Positions 5,060-25,207 of a DNA stretch of 64,000 nucleotides are shown here, in pieces. Location of the stretch: the IMG/VR virus record IMGVR_UViG_3300006925_000007, positions 1-64,000 of that record; one strand, written 5' to 3'. The stretch's first letter is position 1. Every line of letters begins with the position of its first letter. Source of the DNA: a virus. A program made the position numbers and the translations under genes. Under the pieces are notes generated by a model that ran no database searches, was not told where the DNA came from, and saw only the letters and a program-made list of their open reading frames with translations.

Positions 5060-5821
5060 TTACTTCTTTAACTGTGCAAACGCTTGCTTAAGAATACTTG
5101 GAGAAACTTTGCCTTCGGCTTGTGCTTCTTTAATTGTGCGAACTGCTGCCAAGTATGCATCTTCTTTCATCTCACGTCCGTCCATGTCGGAATCGGCATC
5201 CATTGCATCTGCTCCACCAAATTCGTCATCCATTGGTGCATCTAATGGTGCGTCAAGACCTGCTTCCATGTCACCTTCTGGTTCTACAGGCATATCCATG
5301 TCTGATGTTTCTGGTGCCATACCTTGTGCTGTTAATACTGCATTTCCAACTTGCTCGTTTGCAGACTTAACTGCCTCTAGAGCTGAGCCAATAGCTGCTT
5401 CGGCACTTGAATTAAATGCATCTGCTTCTGCTGTTCCAACTTGTTCTTTCATAGCATTATGAATACTCATTAGGTCCTCAACTTGCATACTTGCTAAGTT
5501 TTCGGCCATCTTTTGTAAGTCATCTGCCATTTGTTTTGCTGCTAGTAGGACTTCGGCTTGATCTAAATCAGCCGATTCTTCTAGCTTCTTTTTTTCTATT
5601 GCCATATCCATTCCTTCCGCAATTAGTAGTAGCTTTTGAAAATCTTTGTTACTAACGTCTTGGCCGTTTTCTCGAAGATCTGTAATTTTTCTTTGTGTAG
5701 ACTCTTGTATTGCTTCTAACTTAGAGCTAGGTGCATTAAAGTCTAACTTTAGACTAAAAACATCATCAAGCACACGCTTGAGTGTTGTTAGTTTGTTTTC
5801 TTTTAATTGTTGTAATTCCAT
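5060..5821 (-). CDS. Acidic helical protein, putative prohead core/scaffold-like
   Basis: Coiled-coil, D/E/M-rich, LKE/LEE sites; late motif at 5860-5866. Confidence 0.45.
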   Translation of the reverse strand: MELQQLKENKLTTLKRVLDDVFSLKLDFNAPSSKLEAIQESTQRKITDLRENGQDVSNKDFQKLLLIAEGMDMAIEKKKLEESADLDQAEVLLAAKQMADDLQKMAENLASMQVEDLMSIHNAMKEQVGTAEADAFNSSAEAAIGSALEAVKSANEQVGNAVLTAQGMAPETSDMDMPVEPEGDMEAGLDAPLDAPMDDEFGGADAMDADSDMDGREMKEDAYLAAVRTIKEAQAEGKVSPSILKQAFAQLKK

Positions 5822-5868
5822 TTTAGAACCCCATTTTTCTGATTAATATACTTATATTGTATTTATGC

Positions 5869-6489
5869 TTAGAGCAGTGATTTGATCTGTTTTTTGCAAT
5901 TTGACATCTTTTGTATTGCATTTCCTTGCTTGGCTATATATACATCTGTCTTATAACTTTCAGTTAAAGTCATTGACTTTTGTTTATACATAGCTGCTTC
6001 TGTTAAATATCCAGCATAACGCTCATCTAACTTTGCAATTTGATCTACTTTGTATTGTTGTTGTGTTTTGTTAAACATCAAATGTTTAACGATTCCCATA
6101 GCACTTTCAAATAATGCTACGTCTTCGTATAACATATTACCTTCTGCATCTTTAACATTATAGTATTTCTTTTTAACCCCATCAATTACATATTTTTGCA
6201 CTATCTCAACATTATAATTACCATTAATAGTAATATTGTCATTTTCTTTAAGTGCAACTGCTGTTAACATAGAAGATTCTGTATCTTTTTGTGTAATTGT
6301 TTTCTTTGTAGCGTTGGTGGTTGCTTCATCTAATTTTTGTAATATTTCATACATGGCTTTTGCATCAGATGAAACATTTCCAGGTGCTACTGATTTGTCA
6401 GTAACTACTGGTGTTGATTTTTGTTCTGTTGCGTTTGCTAATTTATTTAATATGTCTTGCATTCCTTGGACATCGTCAGATGATGGCAT
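5869..6489 (-). CDS. Hypothetical protein
   Basis: 206-aa ORF with TAATG coupling to the upstream gene. Confidence 0.6.
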   Translation of the reverse strand: MPSSDDVQGMQDILNKLANATEQKSTPVVTDKSVAPGNVSSDAKAMYEILQKLDEATTNATKKTITQKDTESSMLTAVALKENDNITINGNYNVEIVQKYVIDGVKKKYYNVKDAEGNMLYEDVALFESAMGIVKHLMFNKTQQQYKVDQIAKLDERYAGYLTEAAMYKQKSMTLTESYKTDVYIAKQGNAIQKMSNCKKQIKSLL

Positions 6490-21529: not shown

Positions 21530-22264
21530 TTATTTTACTAAAGTTAGCTTAACTCTGTTAAAAAGAGTCTCTTTTGCGTTACTATACTTGCTTAATTCCT
21601 GTTTATTAACAGTTCCACGTATAGTTATTGTTTTGCCTTCGATAATATCAGTTAGATCTGGCTGTTCTCTCCACCAAAACTTAACAATATCTCGGTTATC
21701 AGATACGCATGTAATCATGTAAACGTCACTTGACTGTATAAACTTAACATCTATTACATCTACTTCAATGTCATAGCGAGCGCCTTTTTTACCAACATAT
21801 TGGCTTATATGCTTTAGTTGAGACATTGTGTCGTTAAGTGCTTCACGCTTCTGGTCAATCTTTAAAGAATTTGGAACACTTGCAAGAATACTTACATGGA
21901 AATTATTAACATCATCAGAGGTTGCTCTTACTAGTCCACTTTCAAAGTTAGTAAGGCCACCGCCAAGTTTTTTCATCATTAATTTACCATTAATGCGTTC
22001 AATTTCTGCGGTTGCTTGATCTACGTATTTTTGATTAGGAATGTATTTTCCTTTAAAGTTTTTTACGGTTTGAATGATAACTGTTTTGTTATCTTTAATA
22101 TCAGTGTAGATTTGATTTCCATCTTCGTCTACTGTATTAGTAGGTTCTTTATAACCGTATCCGCTTTTAACAAAGCCTTGTGCGTCAAATACTTCAAATG
22201 AGATGGCTAATATTTCAGCCGGTGTATAATTGCTTATATCATTTTTTACTTGTGTTGCTGACAT
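21530..22264 (-). CDS. Hypothetical protein with C-terminal OB-fold-like segment
   Basis: SQYVGKKGAR...ITIRGTVNK...TLFNRVK; AGGAG SD. Confidence 0.6.
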   Translation of the reverse strand: MSATQVKNDISNYTPAEILAISFEVFDAQGFVKSGYGYKEPTNTVDEDGNQIYTDIKDNKTVIIQTVKNFKGKYIPNQKYVDQATAEIERINGKLMMKKLGGGLTNFESGLVRATSDDVNNFHVSILASVPNSLKIDQKREALNDTMSQLKHISQYVGKKGARYDIEVDVIDVKFIQSSDVYMITCVSDNRDIVKFWWREQPDLTDIIEGKTITIRGTVNKQELSKYSNAKETLFNRVKLTLVK

Positions 22265-22298
22265 AGTATTTCTCCTACTAATTAAACTTTATAATAAT

Positions 22299-22327
22299 AG
22301 TATACGGTAAGAAGTCTTACTTGTCAA
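22299..22327 (-). promoter_or_regulatory. Sigma70-type promoter with palindromic spacer
   Basis: TTGACA-17-TATACT; spacer contains GTAAGA-CT-TCTTAC. Confidence 0.85.
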
Positions 22328-22343
22328 CCTTTTTTTAGTCAAG

Positions 22344-22372
22344 AAAAAACCCAGTCCTAAAACTGGGTTTTT
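22344..22372 (-). terminator. Intrinsic terminator after the candidate ncRNA
   Basis: Minus strand AAAAACCCAGT-TTTAGG-ACTGGGTTTTTT. Confidence 0.8.
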
Positions 22373-22374
22373 AA

Positions 22375-22591
22375 ATAAGCAAAATAGGGAGGACTGGGGT
22401 GCACCTCCAAGTAGCACATCTAGATACCTTTTCTAACTACACTACCACCTACTCCTGCGTATCCGCAATGTGACTCCCTCCGTTTTCCGGGTAAAGCCTG
22501 GGTATAACCCCTGAGCAGTCAAGTTCGACGCCTAGGTAACGCCTCTTCCTTGCACTATAAACATTGAGCCGCTAAACTCTTTGTTGCTTAT
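22375..22591 (-). ncRNA. Candidate structured non-coding RNA, family unknown
   Basis: GC-rich ORF-free interval with own promoter (22598-22626) and terminator; 5' AUAAGCAA pairs with 3' UUGCUUAU; several internal hairpins. Confidence 0.7.
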
Positions 22592-22597
22592 GTATTT

Positions 22598-22626
22598 AAT
22601 ATAATACATCTTGACCGAAAAGTCAA
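22598..22626 (-). promoter_or_regulatory. Sigma70-type promoter of the candidate ncRNA
   Basis: TTGACT-17-TATATT; predicted +1 at 22591 is the first base of the terminal stem. Confidence 0.7.
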
Positions 22627-22645
22627 CCTTTTTTTTAAACTTTTT

Positions 22646-23350
22646 TTAAATTTTATATATGGTTTCTTTGTTACCTTTTGCAACTAAATTCCATGTTGTT
22701 TCTGTTGCTGTTCCTGTTATCTGCAAACAAGGTCTTTTAGTCCAACTACCATTCCATGTAACATGCGGCAGTGTGCTCCAATCCCATGCAAATATTGTTC
22801 CTGCTTTCCATTGTGTATACACAATGTTTCCAAATTGAAATATTTGTCCTGGTTCGTGATCTTCTAATGTAATTAAAAAACGTATCTTATCAGGATGCTG
22901 ATACTTAAACTCTGGGTTGTCAATAACTCTATCCTTGCGTGGGTTTCCGGGTAAGTTATCAATGTGCCACATTAACTGATCATTTGGATACTGATCGTTA
23001 AATTTACATGTTAGTTTCTCATCTGTGTTGAAACAAAACATGTCTGTAATCTTTGTAAACTGTGGAAACTCTCCTGGAAACTTATCGTAATTAACTTTAC
23101 GAAACATAGTTGTGTTTGGCTTTCCATATGGGTTGTCTGCATCTTCTACGACATGATCTTTGCTTTTAACATTAGCCGCATGCTCGTATCTTTGTTCGTT
23201 GTAGATTTGAGTTCGCACACCCTTGCTACGTGCATGTTCTATTTCTGCTTTCCAGTCGCCTGCTAATACGCCTGCGATCTTAACGTATTCGCCTTCTTTA
23301 TCTTCTTTAAATTTATCAAAGTGCCATGGTGTTTTAAAAGGTGAGGGCAT
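22646..23350 (-). CDS. 2OG-Fe(II) oxygenase-like protein
   Basis: WHID (HxD)...LPHVTWNG (distal His)...RPCLQITG (2OG-binding Arg); late motif at 23393-23399. Confidence 0.7.
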   Translation of the reverse strand: MPSPFKTPWHFDKFKEDKEGEYVKIAGVLAGDWKAEIEHARSKGVRTQIYNEQRYEHAANVKSKDHVVEDADNPYGKPNTTMFRKVNYDKFPGEFPQFTKITDMFCFNTDEKLTCKFNDQYPNDQLMWHIDNLPGNPRKDRVIDNPEFKYQHPDKIRFLITLEDHEPGQIFQFGNIVYTQWKAGTIFAWDWSTLPHVTWNGSWTKRPCLQITGTATETTWNLVAKGNKETIYKI

Positions 23351-23857: not shown

Positions 23858-24123
23858 TAATCTTCATCTTCCCAATATTCTTCTGCATATTCTTCGTCAG
23901 AGTCGTGGTCATCATTGACTTCAAAGTGATCTGCAAGTGCTTGGTCTAAATGTTCATCGTGATCACCTATTTCAACCGCATGTCTTGTTAGATCTACGCC
24001 GTAATCATCTAAAGTAAAGATATAGTCTTCTGCAAACTTTTCTTTATTTTTGTCTGGTATATGTGCTATTGCTTTATCGAAAATTTGTAAGAATAACTCT
24101 AAATCGTTATCACTCAGATTCAT
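23857..24123 (-). CDS. Acidic hypothetical protein
   Basis: Start at ATG 24123 after GGAGG; D/E-rich C-terminus. Confidence 0.6.
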   Translation of the reverse strand: MNLSDNDLELFLQIFDKAIAHIPDKNKEKFAEDYIFTLDDYGVDLTRHAVEIGDHDEHLDQALADHFEVNDDHDSDEEYAEEYWEDED

Positions 24124-25207
24124 TAATAACCTCCTGGTTAGGTTGTTCGCCATCGCTATCTTTTATGTGATCTGGTTGCATATCCCATTCATTCATAACA
24201 AGATCCAAGCAATTATCTTTGTTAGCATTCCAAGGTTTGCGGAACATTTTAATTACTTCACCTGTTACCGGGCTAATATATTCTAAACTGTTACCACTTT
24301 TCTTAAGAACATCTTTTGCTTCAAAGAATTCAACTAGTCCACTGTATGGACTCATACCTGTTTCGTATGGAATTTCTACTTGCACACTTTCAAATGGTTT
24401 TGCATAACGTGTTTTCATTACCTTACACGCTGCTCTAATACCAAATACTTGTGATGTTTTATTGCCTTCTGCATCTACTTTTAGTTTAAGTTTACGCATT
24501 GCGATAACAATACTACTTGCATAGATAAAGCCTTGACCACCTGAGATCTTATCATCTGGATCAAACATATCTTGTGATGCATATGTATGGTTTGTGCATA
24601 ACATACCAACATTAAACTCACCAAACATATTAACTGTGTTACGAACTAATGAAGTTAGTGCTTTAGGCTTACGACCCATATCACCTTTCATATCACCTTT
24701 TTGAAACTGATCAACATCAGTAGGTGTTAGTAACATACCTAAACTATCTACAACAAATAATACTTTAGGACGTTCTTCCTTTTCTTTATCTGTATATTCT
24801 GCTTTATAATCTTTCATAAAGTCACTCACTGTGCGAGCAACATCATCAATCATACTCATGTTTAGTTTTAGTAGTTTATCTTCAGCAGTATCTACGTCAA
24901 GTGCATGTAGCCATTTCTCATCTAGTGCGTTTTCACTATCAATAAGAACTACAAATATACCTTGATCTTGTGCTGCCTTAACTACATTACCTGCTGCAAT
25001 GTAACTTTTGCCTGCACCTGATTCTCCTGCAAGAACAGTTACTTTACCTAAAGGAATACCTTTCACAAAGTCGTTACTGATTAATTTGTTTAGTGTGTAG
25101 TTGCCTGTTGAGATCCATGTGTCTGGATCATTAAACCCGACACTTAGTCCGGGCACCGCTTTAGTAATACTTTTACGGAATTTGCTTACGTCAAAAGGTT
25201 TTGCCAT
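24110..25207 (-). CDS. uvsX: RecA-like recombinase UvsX
   Basis: GESGAGKS, IDSENALD, VVDSLGML, NHTY, SGGQGFIYASS, KTRY. Confidence 0.93.
   Translation of the reverse strand: MAKPFDVSKFRKSITKAVPGLSVGFNDPDTWISTGNYTLNKLISNDFVKGIPLGKVTVLAGESGAGKSYIAAGNVVKAAQDQGIFVVLIDSENALDEKWLHALDVDTAEDKLLKLNMSMIDDVARTVSDFMKDYKAEYTDKEKEERPKVLFVVDSLGMLLTPTDVDQFQKGDMKGDMGRKPKALTSLVRNTVNMFGEFNVGMLCTNHTYASQDMFDPDDKISGGQGFIYASSIVIAMRKLKLKVDAEGNKTSQVFGIRAACKVMKTRYAKPFESVQVEIPYETGMSPYSGLVEFFEAKDVLKKSGNSLEYISPVTGEVIKMFRKPWNANKDNCLDLVMNEWDMQPDHIKDSDGEQPNQEVINESE

Follow-up and report, generated by a model that had tools for sequence, protein, structure and literature searches.

The DNA analyzed here, called the window throughout, is a 64,000-nucleotide (nt) stretch comprising positions 1 to 64,000 of IMG/VR record IMGVR_UViG_3300006925_000007, and its minus strand carries a gene for a folded RNA of about 217 nt that is neither a coding sequence nor a chance feature. 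Our best explanation, which we hold at a probability of roughly 0.6, is that this is a free-standing gene for an RNA of the manA family (RF01745) in an uncultured marine myovirus and that copies of the RNA join to one another through contacts between their loops. manA RNAs have been orphan riboswitch candidates since 2010; the catalogue lists them as cis-regulatory elements that lie, in cyanophages and among marine genes, in 5' untranslated regions (UTRs) (RF01745; Weinberg et al. 2010, PMC2864571). Their assembly into cages in the test tube was shown in a 2026 preprint, without evidence of natural relevance (Ren et al. 2026, bioRxiv 10.64898/2026.07.01.735769).

The gene occupies a gap between the stop codon (22646) of an open reading frame (ORF) of 234 amino acids (aa) and the ATG (22264) of a 244-aa ORF, both on the minus strand. 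No credible ORF lies in this gap (the two on the minus strand, 31 and 42 aa long, are due to chance), and GC content is 0.43 to 0.465 over the RNA interval, compared with about 0.31 to 0.36 on each side. A first-pass annotation, made from the sequence alone, had described an ORF-free, GC-richer interval between a sigma70 promoter (TTGACT-17-TATATT) and an intrinsic terminator, and each of these elements was recovered: the first by the ORF list and base composition, the second by a promoter scan (10 of 12 consensus matches), and the third by folding, which gave a 12-bp hairpin followed by U's. The predicted transcription start is A22591. A consensus terminator scan did not list the hairpin at 22370 to 22344, probably because the U-run is taken up in A/U pairs of the stem; the weak Rfam matches around the RNA in E-value mode were all hairpins of the terminator type.

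Relatives of the RNA have similar surroundings. Of 84 distinct homologues, 62 are preceded by a promoter of the sigma70 type (at least 9 of 12 matches), and in most of those 62, the end of the −10 box falls within a few bases of a constant position relative to the RNA. Terminator-like hairpins with a U-run were found 3' of the RNA in 43 of the 84, mostly about 20 to 40 nt past it, and their sequences are unrelated to each other. In many of these homologues, the terminator is followed by a second, separate promoter, as it is in the window; at that position, the relatives carry either TTGAC or a T4-type late box, (G/T)ATAAATA. These data support the earlier claim that a host-type promoter and a terminator of its own delimit an independent RNA.

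Homologues occur on more than 120 marine viral contigs, with which the window RNA aligns over its full length. They were collected by two independent pattern scans of IMG/VR, each yielding at least 120 loci, with 59 confirmed by blastn in one scan and 66 by covariance model in the other; among the returns of the 14-mer scan of viral contigs, 59 of 120 were true and about half were chance matches. One contig from a different sample (L062) is identical to the window across the 283 bases compared. In a nucleotide comparison with isolate phages, Pelagibacter phage Mosig was the only one to match; its copy, at MT647606 108156-108350, falls in an intergenic gap that carries no annotation and is 72.6% identical over about 195 nt. 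A near-identity search of isolate phages returned nothing but an unrelated RecA-like match.

Folded as a single sequence from 22591, the RNA reaches −81 kcal/mol (z = −2.63 relative to shuffles), which is modest evidence by itself; the strength of the case comes from covariation, which the first-pass annotation had named as a check on its proposed RNA. RNAalifold, applied to a MAFFT-based alignment of 43 sequences, gave 49 pairs, 30 of them with compensatory changes. We then refined the structure on an alignment (A4) of 94 copies, 85 of them distinct, fitted to a covariance model (R1) built from the window's subgroup. In the 61 pairs of the refined structure, 92.2% of alignment cells are paired, compared with 67.9% in shuffled alignments; 52 of the 61 pairs change on both sides; and the covariation score is 0.620, compared with 0.185 for shuffles, with none of 500 shuffles reaching the observed value. 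Control structures in which partners were slid by 1 to 3 columns scored 0.07 to 0.11. Fitting A4 to R1 biases it toward the structure; the MAFFT-based alignment gives the same helices.

We number the helices as in Rfam and the cryo-electron microscopy (cryo-EM) preprint, adding an extra terminal stem, P0. The 8-bp terminal stem that the first-pass annotation had placed at the predicted start is present, and three of its pairs show changes on both sides across the family. All five internal hairpins that it listed are real and correspond to covarying helices (P5, the tip of P6, P7, P8, and P9). P2 takes the form xxUAG/CUAxx in the family, with one pair found as AU in 60 sequences and as GC in 19. 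The outer helix of P8 is 83% paired in A4, and its inner pairs (columns 331-355 and 332-354) are poorly aligned, at 46%. A protein-coding reading was ruled out because substitutions preserve pairs and are not codon-like; the short ORFs found in some relatives (cluster c0) are artefacts of the conserved RNA sequence.

ARAGORN found no tRNA or tmRNA, in agreement with the first-pass annotation, and Rfam at gathering thresholds gave no match anywhere in the window. The manA model RF01745 produced no match at E values up to 10, either in the region from 22250 to 22720 or in the whole 112-kb record, and none at E values up to 1 on the identical copy L062; the window copy is thus below the gathering cutoff of 55.2 bits. 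A scan against Rfam, proposed earlier as the check on novelty, therefore leaves the window copy without a family, but its full-length relatives match manA, and "unknown family" was wrong. Eight relatives score above the cutoff: L175 (75.6 bits), L163 (68.3), L143 (67.5), the Mosig locus L001 (64.0), L019 (61.9), L029 (57.5), L168 (56.4), and L154 (55.4). Matches below the cutoff, with E values of 1e-8 to 1e-11, were obtained for L152, L095, L058, L064, L024, L003, L008, L010, L078, L031, L125, and L142; among these, the relatives that share the window's gene neighborhood score 48.1 (L003), 46.8 (L008), and 46.5 bits (L010), with E values of about 1e-9. The window RNA aligns end to end with the Rfam-positive copies L019, L029, and L013 (the Mosig copy) in alignments A2 to A4, and R1 recovers the Rfam-positive copies L175, L143, L163, L154, and L168 at E values of 1e-10 to 1e-52.

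The architecture agrees as well. The consensus structure of RF01745 maps one to one, in the same order, onto the helices P1 to P9 that we had found independently, each of which has pairs with two-sided changes: its first hairpin is P1, its bracketed closing pairs are P2, and then follow P3 with an internal loop and a hairpin, a P4 junction with three hairpins (P5 to P7), P8, and P9. The conserved bases of manA are present (GUG after P2, GAA in the P3 loop, GGU...A(A/G)UCC in P9, and CCU after P9), as are the UAA/GAA and CCUA junction bases, and the window's core blocks (AUAGUGCAAGGAAGA, GAACUUG, and GGAGGU...AGUCCUCCCUA) are invariant or nearly so in the 94 sequences. Since full-length relatives pass the Rfam cutoff and the helices and conserved bases are the same, the window RNA is, as judged from these comparisons, a divergent member of the manA family and not a new class. 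That it founds a family unrelated to any catalogued one, as its blank at every Rfam threshold tried might suggest, has only a vanishing probability and is already refuted by the scores of its relatives, the match to the consensus, and the recovery of Rfam-positive copies by its own subgroup's model. Four other classes were compared by eye, namely the group I intron (whose S element is similar to AUAGUCC), minimal RNase P, signal recognition particle RNA domain IV, and the lysine riboswitch; they were dropped because Rfam gave no match to them and manA explains every helix.

Within the family, the window RNA is distinctive. Like other manA RNAs, it occurs in a marine phage lineage (manA is found in marine T4-like phages) and has complementary L5 and L7 loops. 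It differs in having P0, which begins at the predicted transcript start; in reading GUUAUA/GAUA in L5/L7, where the consensus letters GUGGUG/ACCA have been lost; in its shorter P3b loop; in having its own promoter and terminator instead of a place in a 5' UTR; and in its host phage, which is not an obvious cyanophage.

The first-pass annotation had also proposed that the L9 loop (CAGUC) pairs with an upstream GACUG at the P3/P4 border as a pseudoknot or switch. The complementarity exists in the window sequence, but in 85 distinct homologues, this pairing is no better than in shuffles (500 of 500 reach the observed score); single-sided changes break it in 17 to 18 sequences, and its bases are also part of the covarying helices P3, P4, and P9. 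We rejected the pseudoknot on this lack of covariation. By eye, the base that follows P3 (window position 22519, A4 column 142, in UUG[A/G]C) tends to co-change, purine with purine, with a base of L9 (22394, column 390, in A[G/A]UCC), AAUCC occurring mostly together with GGC; this tendency may mark a non-Watson-Crick tertiary contact.

The genes around the RNA fall into three unrelated neighborhoods, in which the RNA is always on the strand of its neighbors and the downstream genes are unrelated. In most contigs, the RNA follows gp21-gp22-gp23 (gp23 being the major capsid gene); in the window and three relatives, it follows gp32-UvsX-UvsY; and in Mosig and others, it precedes gp32. In L134, L185, and L168, it adjoins tRNA genes within tRNA arrays, near a phage-encoded alpha-type tmRNA, and these copies have no promoter of their own, as expected of a processed stable RNA. 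Some relatives (Mosig, L143, L146, and L174) have no terminator, and there the RNA leads straight into the ribosome-binding site and start codon of the next gene.

Fifteen metatranscriptome runs hold approximately the RNA's share of a 601-nt query. In three studies, one 100%-identical contig each (X5, X9, and X10) lies wholly inside the RNA gene region, and the flanks have no coverage; we take the bare flanks as a mere hint, since these are assembled contigs. Contigs from two of the studies end at 22364 and 22363, within the 5' arm of the terminator, which hints weakly that the 3' end may be trimmed. A fourth run (X13) contains an expressed variant with changes at 22489/22490 and 22480/22481 that keep two P6 pairs.

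In the contigs with tRNA arrays, L134 provides an example of direct adjacency, with a tRNA at 6043 to 6113 beside the manA-like RNA at 5811 to 6042. Many tRNAs and tRNA arrays occur in the marine phage contigs L185, L134, L170, and L168, and permuted tmRNAs of the alphaproteobacterial type, scoring 100 to 127 bits, were found at L185:6652-7022, L170:9048-9410, and L134:1468-1849. In run X13, a 2,128-nt contig from a related phage matches both flanks of the window RNA, with 257 different letters replacing the 251-nt RNA stretch (window 22334 to 22586); genomes that are otherwise alike thus seem to swap the RNA gene as a cassette.

The loops of the RNA carry a second layer of coevolution. L3 and L8 read UACCA:UGGUA in most of the family, and the window has swapped one U/A pair to give UACCU:AGGUA, a 5-bp duplex of −5.4 kcal/mol. 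L5 and L7 occur in covarying states (GUGGUA:UACC, GUUGUA:GACA, GUUGCA:GGCA, GUUAUA:GAUA, and GUAGUG:AACUA), of which GUUAUA:GAUA is found in the window and, having arisen separately, in L125. In other subgroups, L8 and L9 pair as AUGGAA:UUCCAU, AGGAUU:AAUCCU, or AUGAUC:GAUCAU. Because A4 aligns the L5/L7 subgroups one column apart, we compared, sequence by sequence, the duplex stability of each distinct loop pair with that of permuted partners in 300 trials. Permuted sets reached the observed stability in 0 of 300 trials for L5-L7, 0 for L8-L9, and 1 for L3-L8; of the other seven loop combinations, six were null (27 to 297 of 300) and L3-L5 was borderline (9 of 300), L3 and L5 also sharing complementary motifs. 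Sequence kinship inflates such tests, and the figures are descriptive.

These three pairs are the contacts that join protomers in the cryo-EM assemblies of manA RNAs, which are decamers built on pentamers and a T=1 cage of 60 subunits (Ren et al. 2026, bioRxiv 10.64898/2026.07.01.735769). One variant in that study is held by intermolecular L5-L7' and L8-L9' kissing loops and the other by L5-L7', L3-L8', and an L6 GNRA-receptor contact (10.64898/2026.07.01.735769). Different subgroups in our alignment favor either the L3-L8 or the L8-L9 network. The window RNA retains L3-L8 and a weak L5-L7, and its L6 is GAAAA, not the GNRA tetraloop of the cryo-EM variant. The solved RNAs, manA_A0F1 and manA_pho34_A767, belong to the same family and join through loop pairs that coevolve here; they differ from the window RNA in sequence, are shorter than 200 nt, lack P0, and were studied in vitro only. 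Highly structured RNAs of about 500 to 800 nt associated with phages or prophages may be functional analogues: they too are independently transcribed and form homo-oligomers in vitro through loop-loop contacts. They share neither sequence nor fold with the window RNA, are several times its length, and gave no Rfam match in the window.

Two other readings of the same RNA have to be weighed. One is that it acts in cis, its fold sensing a metabolite and controlling read-through of the terminator at 22370 to 22344 into the 244-aa gene. Rfam and Weinberg et al. (2010) class manA as a candidate of this kind, and the window has what transcriptional riboswitches have, in the classic order: a promoter, a conserved multihelix fold, an intrinsic terminator, and a gene; the ribosome-binding sites directly after the RNA in Mosig and three contigs point the same way. 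It lacks, however, a competing expression platform and a coherent set of regulated genes, because the terminator lies outside P0 (which closes at 22375, with the terminator hairpin beginning at 22370, so that fold and terminator do not overlap) and is unconserved in sequence, a separate strong promoter (11 of 12 matches) follows before the next gene, with a late-type or sigma70 promoter at the equivalent place in relatives, the three syntenies have unrelated genes downstream, and some copies sit between tRNA genes. The RNA contigs, moreover, stop at the RNA, and the RNA has no known ligand. A cis-acting leader is improbable in our judgment and is the reading least consistent with the layout; that the window gene makes the RNA itself, not the leader of the next gene, is strongly supported.

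The other reading accepts a free-standing manA-family RNA and keeps it monomeric: L5-L7 and L3-L8 would pair within one molecule, as pseudoknots holding the RNA in a compact shape, and in that shape it would act in trans on a protein or small molecule that it binds, as a decoy, sponge, or cofactor, with no oligomers. The manA structure drawn by Weinberg et al. (2010) includes a possible pseudoknot, and the core junction bases (UAGUGCAAGGAA, AACUUG, and ARUCC..CCUA) are near-invariant across subgroups, as in a binding pocket. We nevertheless consider it unlikely, given that the kissing loops holding the pentamers in the solved manA assemblies are intermolecular and that the switch of subgroups between L3-L8 and L8-L9 mirrors the two cryo-EM interface networks.

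Several points weigh against a free-standing, self-joining manA RNA in the window. Its membership in the family rests on transitive homology and architecture, the RF01745 model itself not detecting the window copy. The covariation of loop pairs fits contacts within one molecule and between molecules alike, and the window's L5-L7 contact, three A-U pairs at about 0 kcal/mol, is too weak alone to drive assembly. The cages are known from in vitro work only, with other family members and with RNA at about 3 mg/ml in 10 mM Mg2+ (10.64898/2026.07.01.735769). The metatranscriptome data are assembled contigs and not reads, so that the RNA-limited contigs from three studies speak, along with the promoter and terminator, for the independent transcription claimed earlier but leave exact ends, strand, and level undefined, with DNA carryover possible. 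Leader-type copies exist, and the family is not uniformly free-standing.

On the reading that we prefer, that of a free-standing RNA whose copies join, host RNA polymerase most likely starts at A22591 from the sigma70-type promoter and stops at the terminator at 22370 to 22344, releasing a discrete RNA of about 217 to 250 nt. P0 closes the ends of this RNA around the manA core of P1, P2, P3 with its conserved internal loop, the P4 junction with P5 to P7, P8, and P9. This much is strongly supported. We infer that copies then join by kissing contacts between L3 (UACCU) and L8 (AGGUA) and, more weakly, between L5 (UAU) and L7 (AUA) into closed oligomers, which would be similar to the in vitro assemblies of related manA RNAs (decamers built on pentamers and a 60-mer cage). 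Scaffolding, sequestration, and a decoy function are candidate roles for such an assembly in infection; of the roles suggested in the first-pass annotation, catalysis finds no indication in these data. Taken together, the separate-gene layout, the RNA-limited metatranscriptome contigs, and the coevolving protomer loops argue for selection on the RNA itself and probably on its self-pairing.

We also entertain, as a doubtful extension, that the RNA, transcribed early from its host-type promoter, assembles in infected cells through L3-L8 and L5-L7 into closed, RNA-only shells, a compartment built by the phage or a sponge that would retain some factor of the host or of the phage. If this were true, an RNA cage would have a natural function for the first time, and manA would have been misfiled as a gene switch. 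Much of the family is laid out as a separate, early-transcribed RNA gene, which is found in phages with no obvious cyanophage identity and, in certain phages, among tRNA genes. Most such free-standing copies score below the Rfam cutoff, and the window copy is missed entirely; the seed alignment of RF01745 should be broadened, and its type, "Cis-reg," should probably be changed. Culturable systems, for example Pelagibacter phage Mosig on HTCC1062, also make it possible to test the role of manA. To our knowledge, the tRNA-array context, the comparison of three syntenies, the metatranscriptome contigs, and the comparison of loop networks may be additions of the present analysis.

Table 1. Coordinates, in the window, of the manA-family RNA gene, its structural parts, and the features around it
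Feature	Position	Strand	Details
Sigma70-type promoter of the RNA	22598..22626	minus	−35 TTGACT 22626-22621; 17-nt spacer; −10 TATATT 22603-22598; 10/12 matches (promoter scan)
manA-family RNA	22375..22591	minus	217 nt
P0 terminal stem	22591-22584 with 22382-22375	minus	AUAAGCAA/UUGCUUAU
P1 hairpin	22585-22560	minus	
P2 closing helix	22558-22555 with 22387-22384	minus	AUAG with CUAU
P3	22552-22549 with 22523-22520	minus	CAAG with CUUG; encloses internal loop GAAGA/GAA and hairpin P3b (22543-22527)
L3 loop segment	22534..22538	minus	UACCU; complementary to L8 AGGUA (22429-22425)
P4	22518-22513 with 22454-22449	minus	Encloses P5, P6, and P7
P5 hairpin	22511-22500	minus	
L5 loop	22503..22508	minus	GUUAUA; UAU pairs with AUA of L7 (22462-22460)
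P6 hairpin	22498-22472	minus	
P7 hairpin	22467-22456	minus	
L7 tetraloop of P7	22460..22463	minus	GAUA; L5 partner
P8	22445-22411	minus	
L8 apical loop of P8	22425..22431	minus	AAAGGUA; L3 partner
P9	22408-22388	minus	
Intrinsic terminator	22344..22370	minus	AAAAACCCAGU-UUUA-GGACUGGGUUUUUU; 12-bp hairpin, then U-run (fold)
Separate promoter of the next gene	22299..22327	minus	TTGACA-17-TATACT; 11/12 matches; 3' of the terminator; context, outside the RNA
Metatranscriptome contig X5	22364-22587		Starts 4 nt inside the predicted +1
Metatranscriptome contig X9	22363-22555		
Metatranscriptome contig X10	22379-22567		

The record that contains the window is 112 kb long, with an estimated completeness of 30%, and its source is probably a marine jumbo phage of about 350 kb. 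Genes near the RNA encode a UvsX/RecA-like recombinase, a UvsY-like mediator, an AAA ATPase, and proteins of unknown function. The recombinase (24110 to 25207, minus strand) has 62 to 67% aa identity to jumbo-phage recombinases, the closest being those of Sinorhizobium phage Phosso, Agrobacterium phage Atu_ph07, Vibrio phage 2.275.O, and Cronobacter phage GAP32. Because the recombinase is closest to those of jumbo phages of Proteobacteria, the phage is probably, to judge from this protein, a large marine myovirus and not an obvious cyanophage.

In several relatives, a glutamine riboswitch aptamer (RF01739), scoring above its cutoff, lies on the same strand 150 to 300 nt upstream of the manA-like gene (L019:1573-1622, L152:742-791, L095:5601-5648, L139:2092-2139, and L140:512-558). 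Aptamer and manA-like RNA thus make up a small cluster of structured RNAs behind the capsid gene; no such aptamer is present in the window. Downstream of the manA-like RNA, mostly within about 150 nt, the "freshwater-2" motif (RF02980) recurs (L152:114-183, L139:1589-1671, L140:10-94, L193:1422-1505, L031:954-1040, and L024:5920-5997), overlapping the start of the next ORF in L024 and lying about 500 nt further on in L031. In several relatives, a phage gene for an S-adenosylmethionine decarboxylase (PF02675, E = 5e-13; L104:7661-8032, and cluster c13 in L095, L121, L072, L077, and L085) separates the manA-like RNA from the major capsid gene.

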